NCBI GenBank assembly: GCA_012690745.1
Contig: GCA_012690745.1_4086.1
From: a phage
Length of the DNA: 64,000 bases
Reading direction: 5' to 3' (one strand)
A program made the translations under genes and the position numbers. Of the stretch, positions 4,458 through 64,000 are shown in pieces (positions within the stretch are counted from its first letter, which is position 1; each line of letters opens with the position of its first letter). The notes beneath the pieces were generated by a model that saw only the letters and a program-made list of their open reading frames with translations, searched no databases and was not told the origin of the DNA.

Positions 4458-5000
4458 ATGAGTATACTTAATGAAATGTTAGATTATGAAGACAATGAGT
4501 TAAATGAAGCTCGTCCTTATAGTCGTTCACAAAGTGCAGTTGATAGTGCAAAAGGAAAAGTAAAAGGCTTTTTTGGTAGTGGACAGATTGAACAAGGTGC
4601 ACAAGAAGTTGGTGCTGAAGCCAACCGCTTATGGGCAGAGTTTAAACGTTATGTTGGACGTAAATATGGTAAAGCTCAACCATCAGTACCTTACGCTGAT
4701 GTGGCACAGTTTTTTAAAGGTAACAATCTTGATATTAAACATTTAGGGAACAATCCTCGTCGTTCTTTTACACCAAAAGATGTAGGTACTGCTCTATTAA
4801 ATGCTGCTCGTGATATAATGAATGACTACCGTGACCAACAAGGTGGCGAAGAAAGTTCAGAATCACAACCATCACAATCGACCTCAACTGAGCAACCAGC
4901 ACAACAAGAACAACCAAAAGCACAAGGTTCCAGTATCCCTGATGCTCTACAAAAATTAAGTCCAGAGCAACGCGACCAACTGTTACGTATGCTTTCTTAA
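4458..5000 (+). CDS. hypothetical protein with low-complexity Q/E/S-rich C-terminus
   Basis: 180-aa ORF starting 4 nt after the previous stop. Confidence 0.5.
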   Translation: MSILNEMLDYEDNELNEARPYSRSQSAVDSAKGKVKGFFGSGQIEQGAQEVGAEANRLWAEFKRYVGRKYGKAQPSVPYADVAQFFKGNNLDIKHLGNNPRRSFTPKDVGTALLNAARDIMNDYRDQQGGEESSESQPSQSTSTEQPAQQEQPKAQGSSIPDALQKLSPEQRDQLLRMLS

Positions 5001-5013
5001 GGAGAATCAACAC

Positions 5014-6531
5014 ATGGATAATTTTTTCAGTACTGAAACTACCACAGTTCCTAATGGATATGTATATACGTCACATACTGGTGCAAAATATGTATTTCTT
5101 GAAGGATTCTGGTTCAATGACAATAATATGTTAATGGTAGACCCTAGAAAATACCCATCCATGTACGCAAGTGCTCGACAACAGATTGTCGAGCACAATC
5201 TAGCTTCAAATGAATATAAGATTGGTAACAAATATATTGTTGAAGGTAAAGAGTGTACATTTATTGGTGAAAACCGTTTCAATTCAAAAGATGGAATTCT
5301 ATTAACTGAAAGTGAATTCATCACTGAATTAATGGCAGATGATCATCGAGTATATAATGTTTCTAAAGAAACACTACAAAAAGAATGGAATGCATTAAAA
5401 TTTTACATTCTTCCACCATATGCTGATGATATATCAATTCCAGCAGGTATGGAAGTAAGTGGTTTTAAATTTGTGCCAAAGAATCACCGTTTTGTTGATA
5501 TGAAATCAGGACGAGCAGTTGATCCAGCAATGACCCGTAAACTATCAGATGAAGGTATGCGTATTGCTCGTCAGTTAGCTTCTAAAAATAAACTAATTCC
5601 AATCAAATCAACCTTAGTTCAAGGCAATACACGTTGTGAGTGGAATGGTAAAGAATTTTGTGATAATGATGGTAATGTAGTAATTCCAGAACAAAATGCA
5701 CATGCAATTATTAATGCATATCAGCAATTTGTTAAGAATAACCCAAGTGATTTTCCTACATTAACGGGTGAACAAGAACATAGTGAGCAACGTTTTGGTT
5801 CAGGTGAAAAGCCACATAAAGCTTCACACCCTGCTAAACAGCCAGTATTTGCAACTAAAGAATCAATTAATGAAGCAGATGAAGAAATTGAAGAATTTGA
5901 AAGCATTACTGTTCCTGACGGTTATAGAATGACTTCTTCTAAAGGAAAAACATACGCTAAGAAAAATAACTTGTGGTATGATATCGAAAGTAAAAAGCAA
6001 CTTAACACAAGTGCTTCTAAAAGTGTTGAACGAGCAGCACAGCGTGATATTTTCCGTCATAACAATTCCGGTGCTATGAAAATCGGTACAAAAGTTAAAT
6101 CCAAACAAGGCAAAGAATATTCGTATGTTGGTGGTGACAGATTCATTAGTGCTGATGGTAAGTTTATACCAAAAGCAACTGCTGCTAAATTACTTGCCAA
6201 ATATGAACAAGATAAAGAAGTTAAAAGTGATGAAACACCTGAAGTAGACTCTGGTACTGAGCAAATTCAATCAAAAGAAGAACCTAAGAAAGAACCAGAA
6301 TCTGAACAAAAACCAGACGAAGTTTCTGAACCAGAAACTAAATCTGAAACAATTGCTGGTGATGATGTACAATCATTAGCTTCTAAAATTAAAGAGTCAC
6401 CTTATGCTAAAAAAATCACAGTACTACTAACTCGTGGTGATGAGGTTTCTCTACTTGCTGCTGACATTTTACTTTCAGGTAAAAAGGATGAAACAGTGCA
6501 AATTTTAAAATCATTAAATAATAATGATTGA
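5014..6531 (+). CDS. hypothetical protein with internal repeats and a lysine/glutamate-rich C-terminal region
   Basis: 505-aa ORF; RBS AAGGAGA upstream. Repeated short module VPNGYVYTSHTGAKYVF / VPDGYRMTSSKGKTYAK / KSKQGKEYSYVGGDRFISADGKF. Confidence 0.55.
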   Translation: MDNFFSTETTTVPNGYVYTSHTGAKYVFLEGFWFNDNNMLMVDPRKYPSMYASARQQIVEHNLASNEYKIGNKYIVEGKECTFIGENRFNSKDGILLTESEFITELMADDHRVYNVSKETLQKEWNALKFYILPPYADDISIPAGMEVSGFKFVPKNHRFVDMKSGRAVDPAMTRKLSDEGMRIARQLASKNKLIPIKSTLVQGNTRCEWNGKEFCDNDGNVVIPEQNAHAIINAYQQFVKNNPSDFPTLTGEQEHSEQRFGSGEKPHKASHPAKQPVFATKESINEADEEIEEFESITVPDGYRMTSSKGKTYAKKNNLWYDIESKKQLNTSASKSVERAAQRDIFRHNNSGAMKIGTKVKSKQGKEYSYVGGDRFISADGKFIPKATAAKLLAKYEQDKEVKSDETPEVDSGTEQIQSKEEPKKEPESEQKPDEVSEPETKSETIAGDDVQSLASKIKESPYAKKITVLLTRGDEVSLLAADILLSGKKDETVQILKSLNNND

Positions 6532-54700: not shown

Positions 54701-55521
54701 TAAATGAATCCTCCTTTACGTAATAGTTCACCACGTTTGAATGCATTGAGGTTGAACGTTTTAGTCATATAATCCGATGTTGGTTGTTCTTCAAGTTGTA
54801 ACATAACTGAGATTTTTTGTGGAACCCAAACTTCATCTTGTGGGTTCATATATCCAGTACTTCTAAGTTGTTCGAAGAATTTTCTACTATCCATGTCGGA
54901 TAAATTAAAAGTACTATCGCTACTATTCAACGGAACTTGAATATAAGAAACATCATTTGGGTAAGTAAAATTATAAGATTTTAAAATAACAGGAATATCA
55001 TTATATGTATAACGACCATATCCACTTAGAAGTAAGATTGGTGGTGGTGCACCTGCAATTGCGAGTTCGGGGTTATTAGCCGAAGCAGCTTGTCTACCAA
55101 AATCCATCAACGAAACAGAACGTATAAAATGAACACATGCCAACGCATACATAGCTTCTGCTGCTGTATTCGCATAAAATTCACCCTGAATCGTGAAAAC
55201 TGTATTAGTAGTGTTCTTATAGTTGTTATAGTTACTGTTAGTATGTATAGGGGACTGTGTTTCATACTGAATTGACCTTTGTTCAGTAATTGTTGGTGTT
55301 ACAGTCCAAACCAACCCATTAGTTGGACGCAGAAACGAAAGTAGAGTTGGTTCGGAGCTATCTCCAAAATCACCATATACATAGTTAGCACCTGCGGCTT
55401 TAGGTCGTAATCGAATTCTACGATCAATCATCTTTTTGATTCTCCATAATAAGGGAACATTTGATGTATTTATACGTGGGACAAACTGCTTTTTGGTGCT
55501 ATAATAACATTGATGGTACAA
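54700..55521 (-). CDS. hypothetical baseplate/tail-associated protein (first gene of the minus-strand baseplate operon)
   Basis: ORF track begins at a TTG (55521); an in-frame ATG at 55431 is preceded by GGAGA and may be the real start (about 243 aa). Confidence 0.45.
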   Translation of the reverse strand: MYHQCYYSTKKQFVPRINTSNVPLLWRIKKMIDRRIRLRPKAAGANYVYGDFGDSSEPTLLSFLRPTNGLVWTVTPTITEQRSIQYETQSPIHTNSNYNNYKNTTNTVFTIQGEFYANTAAEAMYALACVHFIRSVSLMDFGRQAASANNPELAIAGAPPPILLLSGYGRYTYNDIPVILKSYNFTYPNDVSYIQVPLNSSDSTFNLSDMDSRKFFEQLRSTGYMNPQDEVWVPQKISVMLQLEEQPTSDYMTKTFNLNAFKRGELLRKGGFI

Positions 55522-55562
55522 GGATTGTACCTATTGGATTTAAACATGGAGAGTAAAATACA

Positions 55563-56402
55563 ATGACAAATAGACCAAAGCGTAAAAAGTATCTCAATAA
55601 TGCTGATTTACTTCGTGAAATACAAAAAAGTAAAATTTCATATTGCTGGTTATTAGACAAATCATATAGTATGTATGATTATATTGTTTTTCATGAGTCA
55701 GGAATTACTGCTGAGTTACTAGAAAAAGCTAAGGCAGCACGAATTAAACGACTGAACAATGAAATGCTTGATAGTATTCGTGAAAAGGAAAATATGAGTG
55801 CTAAAAAAGCTAAAGAATATGCAGATGAACACAATTTAGTTATCACTGACGTTCCAATTGATGAAGTTGTTATTCGTGTTATTACAGATGAACATATTCC
55901 ACCAGATACTAGAGTTAACTTTGAACCATTCAAGCATTATATTGTAGATAATGAAGGTATTCTCTATGAAGTTTGTCGTTCTCACTGGAAAGGCGACCTT
56001 GAAACTGGTGAATTCAGTACTGTTCATGGTAAAATTACAAATGAACTTGGGAAGATGTTCATTAAACTTGCAGAGGAAATCTCACACAAATCTAATTACA
56101 GAAACTATACATACTTAGATGAAATGATGGGTGATGCAAGAATACAATTAGTTAAAAACGCACTTCTCTTTAAAGAGAGCATTCTTTATAAAAAAGATAA
56201 ACCAGCAGTTCAGCTAAATCCTTTCTCTTACTATACATCATTCGTAAACAATAGTTTTCGTTCTATATTGAATAGTGAGAAAAATGTTCGAAATATACGT
56301 GATGATTTACTTGAAATGCATGGCTTTACGCCATCACATACACGTCAAATTGAAATTGAATTGAACATGATTGAAAGGAAAAATGAAGATGGCTCTGTTT
56401 GA
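55563..56402 (+). CDS. late-transcription sigma factor, T4 gp55-like (with internal insertion)
   Basis: 279 aa; N-terminal KKYLNNADLLREIQKSK and C-terminal NPFSYYTSFVNNSFRSILNSEKN resemble gp55 segments as recalled from memory; sits directly upstream of gp47/gp46 as in T4. RBS GGAGAG. Confidence 0.5.
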   Translation: MTNRPKRKKYLNNADLLREIQKSKISYCWLLDKSYSMYDYIVFHESGITAELLEKAKAARIKRLNNEMLDSIREKENMSAKKAKEYADEHNLVITDVPIDEVVIRVITDEHIPPDTRVNFEPFKHYIVDNEGILYEVCRSHWKGDLETGEFSTVHGKITNELGKMFIKLAEEISHKSNYRNYTYLDEMMGDARIQLVKNALLFKESILYKKDKPAVQLNPFSYYTSFVNNSFRSILNSEKNVRNIRDDLLEMHGFTPSHTRQIEIELNMIERKNEDGSV

Positions 56403-57420
56403 TAAAGCAATTACATTCACTGATATTCATTTAGGTTTAAAGAATAACAGCAAGCAACACAATGAAGATTGTTTAAACTTCATTAAATTCATGATTGAGG
56501 TAGCTAAAAAAAATAATATCAAAGTTTGTGTTTTTATGGGAGATTATTTTCATAATAGAAGTAATATCAATATCCAAACACTAAACTATGGTTTACAAAT
56601 TCTTCAATTATTAAATGATAATTTTGAAAAAGTATATTTTTTAGTAGGCAACCATGATATGTATCATAAAAACAAACGTGATATAACAAGTATCAATATG
56701 GCTCAAGTTTATGAAAATATAGAATTCATTAATGAAATTACAACATTTGATGATTGTACTTTCATTCCATTTATGATTGAAGATGAATATAAGTTGTTAC
56801 CTCAACTAAAAAGTAAGTATGTTTTTGGTCACTTAGAGTTACCAGGTTACTTGCTTAACAAGATGGTAGAAATGCCTGATCATGGTAAAGAAACAGAAGG
56901 TTCTTTTGGTGGTTGTGAGTATGTTTTTAGTGGACATTTTCATAAAAGGCAGTCAAAAACAACTTCAAAAGGAACTCGTGTAGTTTATACTGGTAATTGT
57001 TTTCCACATAATTTTTCCGATACATGGGATGATGCAAGAGGTGTGATGATTCTTGAACATGGAAAAGAACCTATTTTCAAGTCATGGGATAATGCACCAA
57101 AATATAGAACATTCACACTTTCTGAATTGTTGACTGATCCAAGCTATTATCTACAAGATAACACAATATCAAAAGTTCAAGTTGATATATCAATAACAAC
57201 AGATGAGATTAGTTTTATTCGTGATACATTTACTAAACTTTACAACATTAGAGAGTTTAATGTTGTAACGAGCAAGCAAAGTATCGCAGAATTAATTGAA
57301 GATGGTGTTAGTTTTGAAAGTACTGAATCAGTTGATGAGATTGTGTTGCAGCAAATTATGGAAATTGACTCACCCATGTTTGATAAAAATCTTCTAATCC
57401 AAATTTACAGATCGTTATAA
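56389..57420 (+). CDS. recombination/repair nuclease subunit, T4 gp47-like (Mre11/SbcD phosphoesterase)
   Basis: Calcineurin-like motifs TDIHLG, GDYFH, GNHDMYH, GHLELPGY, SGHFH. ORF track starts at 56371, but ATG 56389 follows AAAGGAAAAATG. Confidence 0.85.
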   Translation: MALFDKAITFTDIHLGLKNNSKQHNEDCLNFIKFMIEVAKKNNIKVCVFMGDYFHNRSNINIQTLNYGLQILQLLNDNFEKVYFLVGNHDMYHKNKRDITSINMAQVYENIEFINEITTFDDCTFIPFMIEDEYKLLPQLKSKYVFGHLELPGYLLNKMVEMPDHGKETEGSFGGCEYVFSGHFHKRQSKTTSKGTRVVYTGNCFPHNFSDTWDDARGVMILEHGKEPIFKSWDNAPKYRTFTLSELLTDPSYYLQDNTISKVQVDISITTDEISFIRDTFTKLYNIREFNVVTSKQSIAELIEDGVSFESTESVDEIVLQQIMEIDSPMFDKNLLIQIYRSL

Positions 57421-57428
57421 GGGACTAT

Positions 57429-59576
57429 ATGCTAAACATTACACGTATATCTATGAGGAACTTCTTTTCATTTGGTAATGCACCACAATCAATTGAATTG
57501 AATGGTTCTGACATTTCATTAGTACTGGGTCAAAATAATGATGCAGTTATTGAAGGTGGTGACAGCACCGGACGTCGAAATGGTGTCGGGAAAAGTGCTA
57601 TTATTCAAGGATTAGTTTTTGGATTATTTGGGAAAAGTATTGGTAATGATATTAAAATTCCTAACTTAGTCAATAAAACTAATGGTAAAAATTGTGAAGT
57701 AGTTGTAGAATTTGAAAAAGATGGTGTACAATATCTTGTTGAGCGTGGGAGAAGTCCCACGTATTTCAATTTTGTTACTTTAGGCAAAGATAATAAAATT
57801 GAAGATGAATCAAGGGGAGAAAAGAAAGACACACAAGAAGATTTGAATGAAATTCTTGGTATATCTCAATTATTATTTGAACATATTGTAGTACTGAATG
57901 CTAACGTTGAACCTTTCTTAGCTTTATCCACACAAAAACAACGTGATATGATAGAAGAACTTCTTGGAATAACACAGTTGACGGAAAAAGCTGAAATGCT
58001 AAAGGAGATGTATAAGGATACTAAACGTTTAGCCGAACAAGAAAAGTTCAAAAATGAAACTGTAGCTGCAAGTAATGAACGTATTCAAAAAAGTATTGAG
58101 ACACTACAAGAACAGGCAAACCAGTTTGAAATTGATAAAAATAATAGAGTATCTAAGTTAAATGAAGAGTTGAATATATATAAAACTTTAGACTTTAATG
58201 ACCTCTATGAAGCTGCTGATATAAAAGAGAAAGCTCTTATTCATAACGCAAAGCGTGGGGAAATCGAACGCCGTGTACAAGAGTTGGCGTTAAAATTTGA
58301 TGCATATGACCGTGAACTTGAAAGATCTAAAAGAGCATTAAATCTAAGCATTGATAAGCTAAAAACTATTGATATTAGTGCAGAATTGGAAAATCATAAT
58401 GAGTTGGAGATATGGAAACAGTTAGAGGGTATTCTAAAAGAGAATAATAACCAAAAACGTTTCAAAGAACAAAAACTAAACTCACTAAAAATAGCTTTAA
58501 AAGGATATGAATGTTCAATTAATGCTGAAATTGACAAATTATCAACAGTTGAAAACAGCAAATGTCCACTTTGTATGTCTGAATTAGAACATAACGAACA
58601 TACTTCTTCAATTAAAGACAAAATCCAAAGTACTATTAATGATCTTCAAGCTAAAATTGATAGTTCTTCTTCTGAAATTGAAACATTACTTCAAGAAATT
58701 GATAGTATTGAGATTTTTGATATGCCACCTAAGCCTGTGACATATTATAATACACTTTCAGAAGCACAAATGCATGAACATAAGCTTCAAGAATTGGTCA
58801 GAAAGAGTGAAGAAGAACAAATAAACATCTATGCAAATGAACTTATGTCATCATATGATGAACTTAACTCATATGAACTAATGGAAGTTCCAGATACATT
58901 AAACAAATATGAAGTTAAAGAGTTAGAAATGACTGTAAATTCATTATCACAGCAATTAGATCGTGAATTGAAGACTACTAACACATTTATTAGCCAAATT
59001 AATACCCTGAAGACTGATTCTTTAGTACCAATTGATTATAGCGACTATAATAATCTTGATAAAATGTCAAATCACCAAGATTTCTTGGTTAAATTACTTT
59101 TAAACAAGGATTCTTATGTCCGTAAACGTATTATTGAGCAAAATATATCATATTTGAATACACGACTTCAGTACTATATCGATATGTGCGGTTCTGAGCA
59201 TAATGTTGTGTTTTTGAATGATTTGAGTGTTGAAATTGAGAAGAGTGGACAGTACTTTGACTATAAACAGCTTAGTAGAGGTGAGCGTACAAGGGTAAAC
59301 ATCGCATTATCTTGTGCTTTCCGTGATACATATGAGTCATTATACCAAAGTATTAATATTCTTATCATTGATGAGATGATTGACCAAGGTCTTGACTCAA
59401 GTGGTGTTCTACGTGTGTGGTCTATCTTCCAAGATATGGCTGCTGTACGTGGTAAGAACGTTTATGCTATTTCCCACAGAGAAGAGTTACTATCTAAGAC
59501 TGAAAAAATCCTCAAAGTTGTTAAAGAGGACGGTTTCAGTACTGTTGAATATGCAACCCTTGATGATGTTTTCTAA
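57429..59576 (+). CDS. recombination/repair ATPase subunit, T4 gp46-like (Rad50/SbcC)
   Basis: 715 aa. Walker A RRNGVGKSA, long coiled-coil with CPLC zinc hook, signature LSRGERTRV, Walker B ILIIDE, C-terminal SH motif. Confidence 0.9.
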   Translation: MLNITRISMRNFFSFGNAPQSIELNGSDISLVLGQNNDAVIEGGDSTGRRNGVGKSAIIQGLVFGLFGKSIGNDIKIPNLVNKTNGKNCEVVVEFEKDGVQYLVERGRSPTYFNFVTLGKDNKIEDESRGEKKDTQEDLNEILGISQLLFEHIVVLNANVEPFLALSTQKQRDMIEELLGITQLTEKAEMLKEMYKDTKRLAEQEKFKNETVAASNERIQKSIETLQEQANQFEIDKNNRVSKLNEELNIYKTLDFNDLYEAADIKEKALIHNAKRGEIERRVQELALKFDAYDRELERSKRALNLSIDKLKTIDISAELENHNELEIWKQLEGILKENNNQKRFKEQKLNSLKIALKGYECSINAEIDKLSTVENSKCPLCMSELEHNEHTSSIKDKIQSTINDLQAKIDSSSSEIETLLQEIDSIEIFDMPPKPVTYYNTLSEAQMHEHKLQELVRKSEEEQINIYANELMSSYDELNSYELMEVPDTLNKYEVKELEMTVNSLSQQLDRELKTTNTFISQINTLKTDSLVPIDYSDYNNLDKMSNHQDFLVKLLLNKDSYVRKRIIEQNISYLNTRLQYYIDMCGSEHNVVFLNDLSVEIEKSGQYFDYKQLSRGERTRVNIALSCAFRDTYESLYQSINILIIDEMIDQGLDSSGVLRVWSIFQDMAAVRGKNVYAISHREELLSKTEKILKVVKEDGFSTVEYATLDDVF

Positions 59577-59584
59577 TTAAAGTT

Positions 59585-59611
59585 AAAGGGAGCCTTAGCT
59601 CCCTTTTTTTA
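59585..59611. terminator. bidirectional intrinsic terminator
   Basis: GGGAGC-ctta-GCTCCC followed by TTTTTTT. Confidence 0.75.
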
Positions 59612-60086
59612 TATCTACCATATTTAATTTACCGTCCTTAATTAGCTTTCTAGCTTGTTTAGTTCTTTCCTTGACGTTACCTCCAGGAACTACTCCTAAA
59701 TCGCTTAGAATGGCGTTCTGCTGCGTTGCTGGAAGCCTTTTAAACTTAGCTACGTCAACGGTTAATGCCGTGTGGTGAATGACCTGCTCATCTTCTGGTA
59801 TATGATTGTTCCTTTCAAGATAATCTGCCAGATTACGCAATACTTCATGTAATGGCTTATCAGTTAAATGACTTAGGCATCGTTTATATGAGTTTGCTAC
59901 TCTCCCTTCCCATCCATTCACTTCGTTTTGAAGAACCTGCCTACAATGTTGATTTCCACCATGATAATGGTCCAGTACTGGTTTTGTTATTTCTATACCA
60001 ATTATAGGGTCAATCCCATTCTGCTTCTTTAATAGTTCATTTCGATAAGATGCTGCTTCTTTAGGATTTTTTAATCTCTTTTTCAT
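59595..60086 (-). CDS. endonuclease VII-like (His-Me finger) protein; possible Holliday-junction resolvase or homing-type nuclease
   Basis: 163 aa; DHYHGGNQHC...NGWEGRV and YLERNNHIPEDEQ resemble T4 endo VII motifs as recalled; GC-richer codon usage than neighbours. Confidence 0.45.
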   Translation of the reverse strand: MKKRLKNPKEAASYRNELLKKQNGIDPIIGIEITKPVLDHYHGGNQHCRQVLQNEVNGWEGRVANSYKRCLSHLTDKPLHEVLRNLADYLERNNHIPEDEQVIHHTALTVDVAKFKRLPATQQNAILSDLGVVPGGNVKERTKQARKLIKDGKLNMVDIKKGS

Positions 60087-60146
60087 AGCTGTTTGTCCTG
60101 TTTTGTTAAATAAAGTATATTAAAAAGTTTTGTGAGGTACAATAGA

Positions 60147-61094
60147 ATGGCTAAAATGACACAACAACAATTTATAGATAAATCAATTAATCTACATGGT
60201 AGTATTTACACCTACAATAACACCGTGTATGTTAATGCACATCAACCAGTGTCTATTACATGTAAAATTCATGGTGACTTTACGGTAGTTCCTAATAAAC
60301 ATATTTCCGCAAAGCAAGGTTGTCCGGTTTGTTCTGATATTGCAAAGAAAGAACGTAAATCTAAAAAGTCACTGGAGTCATTCTTTACTGAAGCAAAAGA
60401 AGTACACGGTGATAAGTATGATTACTCTAAAGTGTTTTTCAACATTCGTTCAGAGAAAATTACTATCATATGCAAAGAAGAAGGTCATGGTGAATTTAAT
60501 CAGGTAGTTAGTAATCACCTAGCTGGACAGGGTTGCCCTGAATGCTCCAAAGCACTTATTGGTTTAAAGAAAAGAACACCAGAAGATGTATTCTTTGAAG
60601 ATTGTAAGTACATTCATATGGATGCATACGACTACTCCAATACAAAATATAATGGTATGTATGAAACAATTACACCAGTATGCAAACGTCATGGAGAATT
60701 CACAGTACTGGCAACTAAACATTATCATAGAAAGCAAGGTTGTCCGGTTTGTTCTGACATGGAACTAAAGTCAAGACCAGTTATTGAAATTCAGAATTTT
60801 TTAAAAGAGTATGATATAATATTTGAAATGGAAAAGAAGTTTGATGGTTGTAAAAATATAAACCATTTACCATTTGATTTTTATATTCCTTCACTGAATC
60901 TTCTAATAGAGTATGATGGTATTCAACACTTCAAACCAATAGAGTACTTTGGTGGTAAACAAGCTTTAGCTGAACAGCAAAGAAATGATGAAATAAAAAA
61001 TCAATTCTGTTTTAATAACAACATTACTCTTCTTAGAATAAAGTATTTCGAAGATCATATTAAAATCATCAAAGACTATATATCAAAACTTTAA
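60147..61094 (+). CDS. homing-endonuclease-like protein: three tandem zinc-ribbon modules plus C-terminal PD-(D/E)xK (DUF559/Vsr-like) nuclease domain
   Basis: Three repeats of HG(D/E)FTV....KH....KQGCP(V/E)CS; C-terminus FDFYIP...LLIEYDGIQHF. ORF track start 60132 is a GTG; ATG 60147 follows GTGAGG. Confidence 0.6.
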   Translation: MAKMTQQQFIDKSINLHGSIYTYNNTVYVNAHQPVSITCKIHGDFTVVPNKHISAKQGCPVCSDIAKKERKSKKSLESFFTEAKEVHGDKYDYSKVFFNIRSEKITIICKEEGHGEFNQVVSNHLAGQGCPECSKALIGLKKRTPEDVFFEDCKYIHMDAYDYSNTKYNGMYETITPVCKRHGEFTVLATKHYHRKQGCPVCSDMELKSRPVIEIQNFLKEYDIIFEMEKKFDGCKNINHLPFDFYIPSLNLLIEYDGIQHFKPIEYFGGKQALAEQQRNDEIKNQFCFNNNITLLRIKYFEDHIKIIKDYISKL

Positions 61095-61200
61095 AATATG
61101 ATATAGTTTTTTTAGAACCAAGTAATAAAAATGTTACTTGGGTTTTTATATGTGTAAAAGTTGGAACTAAGTACTTAATGAATATTTTTATAAAAATAGT

Positions 61201-61228
61201 GAGACAACTTTAAAGTTTGTGCTATAAT
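61201..61228 (+). promoter_or_regulatory. sigma70-like promoter (GAGACA - 16 nt - TATAAT) preceding the ORF-free region
   Basis: gagacaACTTTAAAGTTTGTGCtataat. Confidence 0.45.
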
Positions 61229-61234
61229 GTTTGT

Positions 61235-61665
61235 TGTAGTAATGACAATCCTGTTGAATGCAGAAATGCATATAAATTAGAACCTGATCCTATCGAAAAT
61301 GTAGATGGCAGATGAGCAGTTCAACAGTGCGATGAGCAAAAGAAACCCGTTAGATGTGGGCATAGTTTGAACCCCTCACGGCAATGCGGCTCAATAAAGA
61401 ACTCCGATAAGCATACAGAGAGTTCCTAGATAGACATATAAGGATCGCACCTTACCAGATTTGCTAAGGGAGTTTATTAAGTGATTTTAATAAACAGCCT
61501 GAAGTTTGATTGTATAGACTTTCAGGTGAGTGTCAGGATGATTAAGACTGACGACCGTTGCACATGACTGCGATAGAGAGAAACAGAGCAACCCGCTTTC
61601 GTTCTTAATATATTTTTAAGAAATTCGCAATACAATAAATGCTGAAACCATCAGCGTCAAGAAAT
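61235..61665 (+). ncRNA. candidate structured non-coding RNA locus (no ORF; flanked by promoter and terminator)
   Basis: About 430 nt without ORFs in a tightly packed genome; locally higher GC; internal hairpin CCTGAAGT...ACTTTCAGG (61497-61527); repeated GATGAGCA. No tRNA cloverleaf recognised by eye. Confidence 0.3.
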
Positions 61666-61690
61666 AGAGACTTCATTGTCTCTTTTTTAT
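61666..61690 (+). terminator. intrinsic terminator closing the ORF-free region
   Basis: AGAGAC-ttcatt-GTCTCT followed by TTTTTTAT. Confidence 0.7.
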
Positions 61691-61902
61691 TGTCTTCATT
61701 CCCCTGCGGGGGGATGAAAATGTCCTCAACAAATCCCGTCAAGTATTAAATCTTTTAAAGTTCTTTATAATTAATTTAATTAAATGAATATGAGTTACGT
61801 AGTAACGAATATTCTTCAGCTAACGAATGAAATGAGTTAGATGAATCCAATAATATTAAAATTAATCCTTTCATAATTCAATTCAAATAATTCTGTAGTT
61901 TA

Positions 61903-61936
61903 AAACCAAAAAAAAAACCAGCAACAATGTGCTGGC
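61903..61936 (-). terminator. intrinsic terminator (minus strand) after ORF 61947-62156
   Basis: Minus-strand CCAGCA-cattgt-TGCTGG followed by TTTTTTTTTTGG. Confidence 0.6.
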
Positions 61937-61946
61937 TATATGAAAA

Positions 61947-62156
61947 TTAGTGCTTCTCGTTTTGTTTTTTAATTTTTTTATTAAAAGACTTAACTAATAA
62001 GTCTCTATCTATTAATGGCATATTAAGGAGTGTTCCATAGTCAATGTTATCCATATATACAGAACATTCCATTAGTGCATTTTTGATTTCTGACTTATTC
62101 AGTTCTATCTCCTTCAGTACTTCTTGTATTTCTTCAGGAGATGACTGGAGAAGCAT
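61947..62156 (-). CDS. small hypothetical protein (69 aa)
   Basis: Start overlaps the stop of the upstream gene at 62156; K/E-rich. Confidence 0.4.
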   Translation of the reverse strand: MLLQSSPEEIQEVLKEIELNKSEIKNALMECSVYMDNIDYGTLLNMPLIDRDLLVKSFNKKIKKQNEKH

Positions 62157-62992
62157 TACTCGAAAAAATGACTAGGATCATATTTTAGTCCATCAATTTC
62201 CCATTGATGATTACATCCATCACATTCTACTTCCATACTATGTGATACTCCAATTTCAAGTACTTCATCCATTTTTTCACGAATTAGTTTAAGTACTCCC
62301 TTCGATTGTTGTCCAAGCCATTCATTAATAAATTCTTTTTCAACTACTTCATCACCATCTGGTGTTATAATTTTTGCAATAACTCCACCGATCATGTCGA
62401 AGTTAAGTTGAGCCATGTTTTCAAATACTTCAGAAAATATTTTTACTTTTTCATCTTTATCAATATCAGCAGTTTCAAGAAACTTAGTCTTCTGTTGCTC
62501 ACTGAACATGCGTTCAGCAAACGATGAATATTCTTTCCATGTAAGTGGTCTAAATTCTAAACGGAGTCCATTATCTAAATCAATTGATGGGATTTCTTCA
62601 AATGCTTGTGCAGTTTCAAGAAGATATGATAGATTACGCTCAAATCGACCTTCTTTTTCACATTCAGGACATACAACGTTAATATCATATGTTTCTTCTT
62701 TAGAAGCAACTTTAATAGCAATAAGAAGCATTTCAACGTCATTTACATACAACTCATCAGCGTCAATTACATTAGGAACACAGTTTTCAATAACACGGGA
62801 TACTGCATCTCCGTTTAGTAACATATCGGGGGTATTAAGTGTCATTTCATCACGTGCACTACGTGCACAAACTCCACATTTGACACCTTTTGGACCTAGG
62901 ACTCCTTCTTTATAAGGAATAACGCCGTTTGTAACTAACTTAGTACTGATCTCTTCAATTTTAGTGTACTTAGCAAGTGGATTCATAGCCAT
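62156..62992 (-). CDS. hypothetical protein with two CxxC pairs (putative zinc-binding)
   Basis: 278 aa; CGVC...CPEC...CDGC; ATG confirmed at 62992. Confidence 0.5.
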   Translation of the reverse strand: MAMNPLAKYTKIEEISTKLVTNGVIPYKEGVLGPKGVKCGVCARSARDEMTLNTPDMLLNGDAVSRVIENCVPNVIDADELYVNDVEMLLIAIKVASKEETYDINVVCPECEKEGRFERNLSYLLETAQAFEEIPSIDLDNGLRLEFRPLTWKEYSSFAERMFSEQQKTKFLETADIDKDEKVKIFSEVFENMAQLNFDMIGGVIAKIITPDGDEVVEKEFINEWLGQQSKGVLKLIREKMDEVLEIGVSHSMEVECDGCNHQWEIDGLKYDPSHFFE

Positions 62993-63122
62993 TTTATTAA
63001 ATCTCCATGTAATAAATGTGTTTTAGTATTTATAAGACCAAAAAAGATTAAATTAAACTAATTTTTATATTCTCTATAGTTTCATAAATATTTCTATAAT
63101 ACATCTATTAAAAGGGAATGTT

Positions 63123-64000
63123 ATGGCTGGAAATACAAGTGATTACCTACTCCAGCAGTTGGTTAATCAAACTAAAGATAACAACGATAGTTTGAGTGCT
63201 ATACGTGAGTTATTGGCTGAAAATATAAAAAATGATAGAAAGAAATCCGGTTCTAAAAGTGGAAAACGTAATGGAAGTAATTCATCAAGTACTGGAAACC
63301 GTGGCTCTCGAACAAATAACAAAGCTGATGATGGTAAAGAATTTGGAAAAATATTTAAATCATTATCATCTGAAGTATCGAATGTCGGCAAAACTATGAT
63401 GAGTACGTCTGCAAACGTTAGCAATGTTGTAAACTCACTAGGAATGAGTGCATCTTCATTTGCTGGTTCATTAGCAATGATCCCAGGTCCAGTTGGTGCA
63501 GCAGCATCTGCCTTCAAATTGGTTGCTGACGCTGGTTTAGCAGTTTATAATGTGTTAAATGCACAGCTTGAAGTTTATAATAGAATAAACAGTGCTGGTG
63601 TCGCTCTATCTGAAGGTTACGGCTCCATATTAAAAGGTGCTGGTGCATCAATGATGAGTATTGATGCATTTGGTGAAGCATTACAAACTCATAGTGCCGT
63701 TGTTGCACAATTAGATGGTGCATATGGTGATGGTGTTTCTACATTTGGTAAATTATTGGGTACTGTGCAACAAGCACAAAATCAATTAGGTTTATATGGT
63801 GTTTCTCAAAAAACATTAACTGATTTAACTGCACGTAATATTAAATTCCAAAAGCAATTTGGTGGAAGAGAAATGTTACGTAGTATGGATCAAGCAAAAA
63901 GTACTGAACAGTTTATCATGAGTATGACTAAGTTCAGTAAAAGTATGGGTGAGTCAGTTGATGCACTATTAAATAAAACACAAAACTTAGATAAATCATT
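63123..64000 (+). CDS. tape-measure / baseplate-hub gp29-like protein, 5' part (runs off the window)
   Basis: Open frame from ATG 63123 to the window end with RBS AAAAGGGAA; Ala/Ser/Gly/Asn-rich helical composition. Missing from the ORF track because no stop lies in the window. Confidence 0.5.
   Translation, partial: MAGNTSDYLLQQLVNQTKDNNDSLSAIRELLAENIKNDRKKSGSKSGKRNGSNSSSTGNRGSRTNNKADDGKEFGKIFKSLSSEVSNVGKTMMSTSANVSNVVNSLGMSASSFAGSLAMIPGPVGAAASAFKLVADAGLAVYNVLNAQLEVYNRINSAGVALSEGYGSILKGAGASMMSIDAFGEALQTHSAVVAQLDGAYGDGVSTFGKLLGTVQQAQNQLGLYGVSQKTLTDLTARNIKFQKQFGGREMLRSMDQAKSTEQFIMSMTKFSKSMGESVDALLNKTQNLDKS

Follow-up and report, generated by a model that had tools for sequence, protein, structure and literature searches.

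A probable free-standing homing endonuclease gene of the zinc-module and Vsr-like class, and the endonuclease VII allele exchanged with it, in a jumbo coliphage

Free-standing homing endonuclease genes (HEGs) of the T-even phages spread by so-called intronless homing, during which the genes flanking them are co-converted. They include those of the Seg, Mob and Vsr-like Hef enzymes (cited in PMC3239194). Among homing endonucleases of the EDxHD type, a large and formerly unrecognised outgroup is built of three to five CapR-like domains of ~60 amino acids (aa) followed by an EDxHD/Vsr-like domain of ~100 aa (PMC12350094), and CapR-like zinc modules of the DUF723/DUF4379 type, repeated in arrays, are known to serve phage homing endonucleases in DNA binding (PMC10448857); papers describing this architecture date from 2023-2025. 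In ICP1 and other phages, nuclease genes are found at the boundaries of genetic exchange, and HEGs form islands (PMC10448857). The composite EDxHD motif of I-Bth0305I consists of E170, D196, N208, H213 and D222 (PMC3239194; PDB 3R3P). Here, we go through a locus on a stretch of phage DNA of 64,000 nucleotides (contig GCA_012690745.1_4086.1; hereafter the window), where a gene on the plus strand at 60147-61094 most likely encodes a free-standing homing endonuclease of the class with a CapR-like zinc-module array and a Vsr/EDxHD-like nuclease domain, which would home with co-conversion of the adjoining gene for endonuclease VII (endo VII; 59595-60086, minus strand). The cassette made of these two genes clearly exemplifies a known process and an HEG type already described, and is not a new kind of system. 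In our literature search, no paper was found that links an HEG of such type to endo VII in Asteriusvirus.

Over 8 kb around the locus, the window is 96-98% identical to the jumbo coliphages of Asteriusvirus (121Q, PBECO4, slurp01 and others), with only 87% of these 8 kb covered by most of them, and the window comes from an Asteriusvirus-type jumbo coliphage of the 121Q/PBECO4 group. The local gene order is a gene for a gp55-like late sigma factor, gp47, gp46, endo VII (minus strand), the HEG (plus strand), a stretch free of open reading frames (ORFs), a small ORF, and gp26 for the baseplate hub (minus strand). A segment of 1080 bp (60088-61167, plus strand), delimited by BLAST breakpoints and junction sequences and consisting of a spacer, the HEG and a terminator, stands where 121Q has 58 bp of intergenic DNA, and homology comes back exactly at 61168. 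The spacer, 60 bp between the divergent start codons of endo VII and the HEG (60087-60146), belongs to the inserted segment and is missing from 121Q; it holds both ribosome-binding sites, that of the HEG being GAGG at 60134-60137, and weak promoter-like hexamers picked up by a promoter scan. At the other end, a terminator scan found an intrinsic terminator of the HEG with a 10-bp stem and a T-run (61118-61150, plus strand; hairpin at 61118-61141), which lies within the inserted segment and insulates a downstream promoter at 61199-61228. The HEG-less phages UE-S1 and slurp01 have breakpoints exactly as in 121Q, and homology to BF17 resumes at 61164. When empty sites of HEG-less genomes were compared with the flanks of the cassette, no convincing conserved pseudo-palindrome or junction motif was found.

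How widely is the gene distributed? Only two of the 69 matching phage records have it, namely ECO103 4-12-1 and EC22.5-2, whose record lengths are identical and whose HEG shares 85% of nucleotides and 88% of amino acids with that of the window, and it is found at none of the 16 syntenic RaK2-like loci of IMG/VR. Of 59 related phage records, about 4 have the inserted segment. In other genera the slot is taken by orthologues of 47-61% identity; Salmonella phage Munch and Klebsiella phage fENko-Kae01 have one of 46% identity there, and the four closest relatives that could be located (311-318 aa, 51-61% identity), on diverged jumbo-phage contigs (L022-L025), all lie divergently upstream of endo VII. 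The HEG and its located relatives of similar length seem to be one lineage tied to one site. Between the window and the ECO103 allele (~86% identical in nucleotides), the ratio of nonsynonymous to synonymous divergence (dN/dS) of the HEG is 0.089, which shows purifying selection and a retained function.

What has been exchanged at this locus is larger than the HEG itself. If the window is compared with slurp01, its nearest HEG-less relative, identity is ~100% over 55000-59599 and 99.5-100% over 61200-64000, but only 70-79% over endo VII; dS is 0.007 in gp46 and 0.03 in gp26, while in endo VII dS reaches ~2.0 with a dN of 0.14 (dN/dS 0.07-0.09). Apart from isolated mismatches at 59564 and 59583, differences from slurp01 become dense from 59616, just inside the 3′-end of endo VII, and stop at 61167. 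The left edge of the divergent part falls just at a bidirectional hairpin terminator between gp46 and endo VII (59585-59606; terminator scan). By mismatch mapping, the whole foreign tract, that is, the endo VII allele plus the HEG, extends over 59600-61167 (~1570 bp). Six other public contigs carry this cassette without a single mismatch, while differing by up to 2.6% at distances beyond 1.5 kb. The exact endo VII protein of the window occurs in 16 public contigs, and the HEG adjoins it in all nine places among the matches listed. The endo VII allele of the window thus appears to be foreign and to have been swapped in recently together with the HEG.

Other genomes show differently bounded tracts. 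The foreign tract of ECO103 runs over 59769-61218 in window positions, leaving the 3′-third of its endo VII of the 121Q type, and three contigs (L011, L014 and L015) have a chimeric HEG between an endo VII of the window type and a right flank of the ECO103 type. In the HEG-less UE-S1 (L004), a patch of ECO103-type endo VII spans ~59770-60040, being near-identical to ECO103 over 59876-59996, and from ~60041 onwards the sequence is again of the 121Q type with an intact empty site; this patch stems either from a conversion that ended before reaching the HEG or from loss of the HEG by recombination. The interval common to all the HEG-associated tracts, ~59770-60040, encodes the catalytic motif of endo VII. 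Such variable tract ends look like the footprint to be expected of gene conversion induced by a break.

The product of the HEG has 315 aa (PHROG 559/9084; Pfam DUF723 and DUF4379), and the same frame is called in the public annotation of other contigs. Its N-terminal region is made of three tandem modules of ~60-70 aa apiece, each of which closes with HG-F-(16)-GCPxC: HGDFTVVPNKHISAKQGCPVCS at aa 42-63, HGEFNQVVSNHLAGQGCPECS at aa 114-134 and HGEFTVLATKHYHRKQGCPVCS at aa 182-203. Self-comparison of the protein gives a repeat at an offset of ~70 aa with E=2e-18. Module 1 (aa 5-64; 60159-60338, plus strand) has the putative zinc ligands C39/H42/C59/C62 and matches DUF723 at aa 31-63; it is CapR/DUF723-like and presumed to bind DNA. 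Module 2 (aa 75-135; 60369-60551, plus strand; C109/H114/C130/C133) matches DUF4379 at aa 103-135, and module 3 (aa 145-204; 60579-60758, plus strand; C179/H182/C199/C202) is delimited by invariant columns and by the internal repeat. Pfam scores are 30.1 bits for DUF723 (cut-off 20.9) and 27.3 bits for DUF4379 (cut-off 24.5), the latter being described by Pfam as a probable treble-clef zinc finger, and none of the twelve putative zinc ligands varies when the protein is aligned with 47 homologues.

The remaining 111 residues (aa 205-315; 60759-61091, plus strand) form the Vsr-like, EDxHD-type nuclease domain, with FDFYIP...IEYDGIQHF at aa 243-262. D244 (60876-60878), E255, H261 (60927-60929) and D281 (60987-60989) are invariant among 36 sequences of the nuclease domain; when the homologue alignments are taken together, D244 stays invariant, with conservation of at least 90% for E255, H261, D281 and K284. 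In an AlphaFold2 model with a mean predicted local distance difference test (pLDDT) of 92, the best structural matches of this domain are E. coli Vsr and I-Bth0305I. As PDB sequences gave no meaningful match with either the single sequence or the full-length profile, and as the profile of the nuclease domain gave no significant one, kinship with these two enzymes is visible by structure alone. A database search returned more than 7,400 relatives of the HEG product, the majority of them 430-550 aa long with more modules. Inside the 64-kb window the gene has no paralogue, and its codon usage is typical of the window (per-codon log-likelihood z=+0.19). Rfam covariance models run over 59000-63000 gave only a terminator-like sub-threshold match, and the HEG is therefore not within a recognisable intron. 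NCBIfam and PADLOC contributed nothing useful, with no match to a PADLOC defence family, and a reading of the locus as a defence system was dropped.

These results bear out most of what the first-pass annotation, made from the letters alone, had said of the larger gene: an ORF for a nuclease at 60147-61094 of 315 aa beside another at 59595-60086 of 163 aa on the opposite strand, three tandem HG.FTV...KQGCPxCS modules (now seen as an internal repeat with invariant zinc ligands), a Vsr-like core, which has the predicted fold and conserved catalytic residues, and the nature of a free-standing homing endonuclease, in line with the architecture, the precise 1080/58 bp presence/absence polymorphism and the rarity among relatives.

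How does this gene compare with the described systems? It shares the domain plan of the EDxHD outgroup (PMC12350094), its three modules being followed by a nuclease domain of 111 aa, and the traits of that outgroup are found here one after another: zinc modules, the C-terminal Vsr/EDxHD-like domain, and sporadic presence with a precise insertion/deletion at a conserved slot. Unlike the outgroup members, the HEG is free-standing in an intergenic slot and not intron-encoded, and it belongs to a short subclade of three modules and ~315 aa that is tied to the site upstream of endo VII and in which the first Glu of the motif is displaced. The spacing from Asp to His is 17 residues (D244/H261), identical to that of D196/H213 in I-Bth0305I, and the Asp further downstream (D281) is conserved too; I-Bth0305I, in contrast, has an N-terminal NUMOD/helix-turn-helix part instead of zinc modules, is encoded in a group I intron of recA, and has E170 where the HEG has Val.

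Like the free-standing HEGs of T-even phages, the present one lies between genes and brings its own expression signals, turns up only sporadically in close relatives, adjoins a conserved gene of DNA metabolism, and comes with replaced flanking markers and variable tract ends. It differs from them in its DNA-binding module and in the phage group, and here an entire allele of an essential gene, ~25% divergent, is co-converted. The genes of the ICP1 type (PMC10448857) offer further parallels, since the HEG sits at the edge of a recombination tract, has repeated zinc modules of the CapR/DUF723 type, has undergone recombination within itself (the chimeric HEG of L011, L014 and L015), and has as neighbour a second HEG slot, used by a T5orf172-type gene in RaK2 and L022; its nuclease is, however, Vsr-like and not of the T5orf172/GIY-YIG kind.

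The other gene of the pair encodes 163 aa and was assigned to T4 gp49-type Holliday-junction resolvases by PHROG, profile and fold. The ORF matches PHROG 423 'endonuclease VII' (E=1e-30), and the profile of its family matches T4 endo VII in PDB (1E7D) at E=3e-9 over residues 21-137. Its AlphaFold2 model (pLDDT 94.7) is matched by Foldseek to 1e7l_A with template modelling (TM) scores of 0.70/0.72 over 161 columns (probability 1.0), and covers the T4 fold full length including the C-terminal helical domain. D39/H40/H42/N57/E60 align with the His-Me finger residues D40/H41/H43/N62/E65 of the T4 enzyme, and the first four never vary among 46 sequences, in which E60 is conserved to at least 90%. 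Thus, the resemblance to endo VII claimed at the first pass holds (TM 0.70 by fold). In comparison with T4 endonuclease VII (gp49; PDB 1EN7/1E7L/2QNC), the full-length fold and the catalytic Asp/His/His/Asn/Glu are kept, whereas the four zinc-ligand cysteines C23/C26/C58/C61 are replaced by D26/I29/Q53/V56 across the RaK2-like clade, and no CxxC motif occurs anywhere in the RaK2-like family alignment. The window's protein has no match to Pfam PF02945 (Endonuclease_7) at E<=0.1, and precomputed PF02945 matches are found in only a few members of the family.

Is this gene, too, a mobile element? It stands at the same position, after gp55-gp47-gp46 and before gp26, in 121Q, RaK2, GAP32, Munch and the 16 IMG/VR loci, and it is a resident core gene of the whole RaK2-like clade at this position, not an inserted element, with the predicted role of the phage's Holliday-junction and packaging resolvase. 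Its codon usage is indeed atypical, as had been noticed at first (per-codon log-likelihood z=-3.35; second of 39 ORFs in G+C content at third codon positions). The resident allele of 121Q is likewise atypical (z=-2.25), and this usage is a general trait of endo VII in the phage group and no evidence of import from outside. The earlier proposal that both genes are mobile or recently acquired can therefore be kept for the HEG and is only half right for endo VII, since the gene is core and syntenic and only its allele was swapped in with the HEG. That proposal had named universal presence at the position and missing catalytic residues as what would speak against it: the HEG is neither universal nor short of catalytic residues, while endo VII is universal with its catalytic residues intact.

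By what route could such a cassette spread? We infer that the HEG product cleaves DNA, and likewise where its target lies and in which direction the transfer goes. In a mixed infection, the three zinc modules would recognise a long site in an HEG-less genome, at the endo VII/intergenic junction or close to it, and the Vsr-like domain would cut the DNA, probably as a dimer as in I-Bth0305I, with D244/H261/D281 as metal and general-base residues. The break would then be repaired from the HEG-carrying genome by the phage recombination machinery, including the products of the adjacent gp46/gp47 and endo VII itself, and the repair would copy the HEG in and co-convert the flanking DNA. Because donor and recipient endo VII diverge by ~25% in nucleotides, crossovers would resolve only beyond endo VII; if the cut lies in the empty site, this divergence would force them out into gp46. 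The whole resolvase gene would thereby be replaced, giving the cassette at 59600-61167. A bolder version, which we regard as possible but rather doubtful, places the recognition site inside endo VII, at ~59770-60040, so that the cassette would be a drive together with its immune cargo: the resident resolvase allele is cut and replaced by a heavily recoded allele resistant to cleavage. If this were true, a selfish nuclease would dictate the evolution, perhaps even the zinc-less form, of a core recombination enzyme, and the driven enzyme would itself be needed to resolve the repair intermediates.

Several points weigh against homing as set out above. The cassette-bearing contigs are almost identical in the near flanks (~58000-62400) as well, so that their backgrounds can be told apart only by differences more than 1.5 kb off. 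Mosaics of this kind could in principle also arise by ordinary homologous recombination, with no cut made by the HEG product. The putative recognition sequence could be situated within endo VII, within the empty site of 58 bp or at the right junction. The profile of the nuclease domain against I-Bth0305I (3r3p) is not significant (E=0.84). In the HEG and its five closest relatives, Val or Ile stands in place of the first Glu of the EDxHD motif, which is E170 in I-Bth0305I and the Glu of 'SxGE' in most of the wider family; V212 takes its position in the HEG with E214 two residues on, and an acidic residue is found two positions later in five of the six subclade members.

One may imagine that the HEG is a former homing endonuclease, now immobile and domesticated for some use to the phage, for instance to shut out competing phages, to destroy the DNA of host or rivals, or to regulate as a CapR-like site-specific DNA-binding protein, and that the mosaicism comes from ordinary recombination. 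The strong purifying selection (dN/dS 0.089), the same-slot orthologues across genera with a divergence roughly tracking that of gp46, the displacement of the canonical first Glu in the whole subclade, and the co-option of CapR-type modules as repressors elsewhere (PMC10448857) would all suit this idea. Against it, the gene is missing from the great majority of close relatives, so that a useful domesticated function is hard to reconcile with its distribution; D244, H261 and D281 are intact; the sharpest sequence discontinuity of the region coincides exactly with the HEG and its neighbour; and no PADLOC defence family matches. We take domestication to be unlikely.

The roles might instead be reversed, the divergent endo VII allele being the selected cargo, driven for example by escape from a host defence or a rival-phage factor that targets endo VII, and the HEG only hitch-hiking. 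That several old endo VII alleles exist in one genus, that UE-S1 has part of the HEG-type allele without the HEG, and that both endo VII alleles have unusual codon usage could be read in this manner, yet a dN/dS of 0.07-0.09 gives no sign of diversifying selection, the differences being mostly saturated synonymous changes; catalytic and most core residues are invariant; and in the nine places among the matches listed the allele of the window always has the HEG beside it. This reversal seems to us quite improbable. Still less credible is a pair of mobile nucleases in which the endo VII-like gene, too, encodes a homing endonuclease, of the F-CphI type. A homing endonuclease family with the endo VII motif does exist (PMC6083498), and the gene does lie inside the exchanged tract; but it aligns full length with T4 gp49 including the C-terminal helical domain, stands at precisely this position in all RaK2-like genomes examined, and has no extra DNA-binding module. 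The sporadic distribution and the fusion of the endo VII motif to other parts that mark the F-CphI type are not seen in it, and this candidate was rejected for a gene that is universal, syntenic and full length. All three explanations are less likely than homing by the HEG with co-conversion of endo VII.

Taken as such a homing gene, the HEG is a natural example, in circulation, of a recently recognised class that joins a zinc-module array to a Vsr-like nuclease, at a locus where the empty site is exact, the cassette variants number at least three, and the conversion tracts end at different points. An essential resolvase gene has been replaced wholesale by a synonymously saturated allele in otherwise near-identical genomes, which makes endo VII a poor phylogenetic marker in Asteriusvirus-type phages. 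Coliphages of the 121Q/PBECO4 group with and without the HEG are a tractable pair for studying target, specificity and the drag on core genes between jumbo phages.

It is also to be noted that reference-guided assemblies may silently lose the cassette. In the records of the Salmonella phages SD-2_S15 (L003), SD-15_S21 (L110), SD-1_S14 (L111) and SD-6_S16 (L112), 'deletions' affect the intergenic region and endo VII in its 5′-part; in positions of the 121Q locus they end at 4751-4794 on the left and at 4935 or 5188-5196 on the right. These ends fall where the divergent tract of the ECO103 type (window 59769-61218) has its boundaries, gp47 is split in two of the four phages, and the SD genomes are 20-40 kb short. 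The 'deletions' were considered as scars of break repair, which was set aside given the match of the ends to the divergent tract and the other breaks in two of the four genomes; they are likely assembly drop-out of a divergent HEG-bearing cassette and not genuine losses.

On the other side of endo VII, between it and gp46, RaK2 (ORF085w, L028 2962-3993) and the related metagenomic contig L022 (2418-3449) carry a gene for 343 aa with matches to T5orf172/MUG113 (GIY-YIG-like) and DUF4379, which is absent from Asteriusvirus. With HEG slots on both sides of endo VII, the locus is a small HEG hotspot. Further upstream, the gp55-like late sigma factor before gp47 (55563-56402) has 279 aa, with alternative longer starts annotated in relatives; it is much longer than T4 gp55, which has ~185 aa.

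Downstream of the HEG lies the ORF-free stretch (61199-61790, core 61255-61770), with a TGnTATAAT promoter at 61199-61228 and a terminator at 61666-61683. It is conserved above its coding flanks, being 94-98% identical to BF17 where coding DNA is 72-89% identical; it is 70-75% identical to Munch, GAP32 and L024, and absent from RaK2 and L022. No Rfam family matched it in the scan of 59000-63000. RNAalifold on five sequences gives 98 pairs, 25 of them with compensatory changes and long-range helices included, and judged from this alignment the stretch is probably an undescribed structured phage RNA of ~500 nt.

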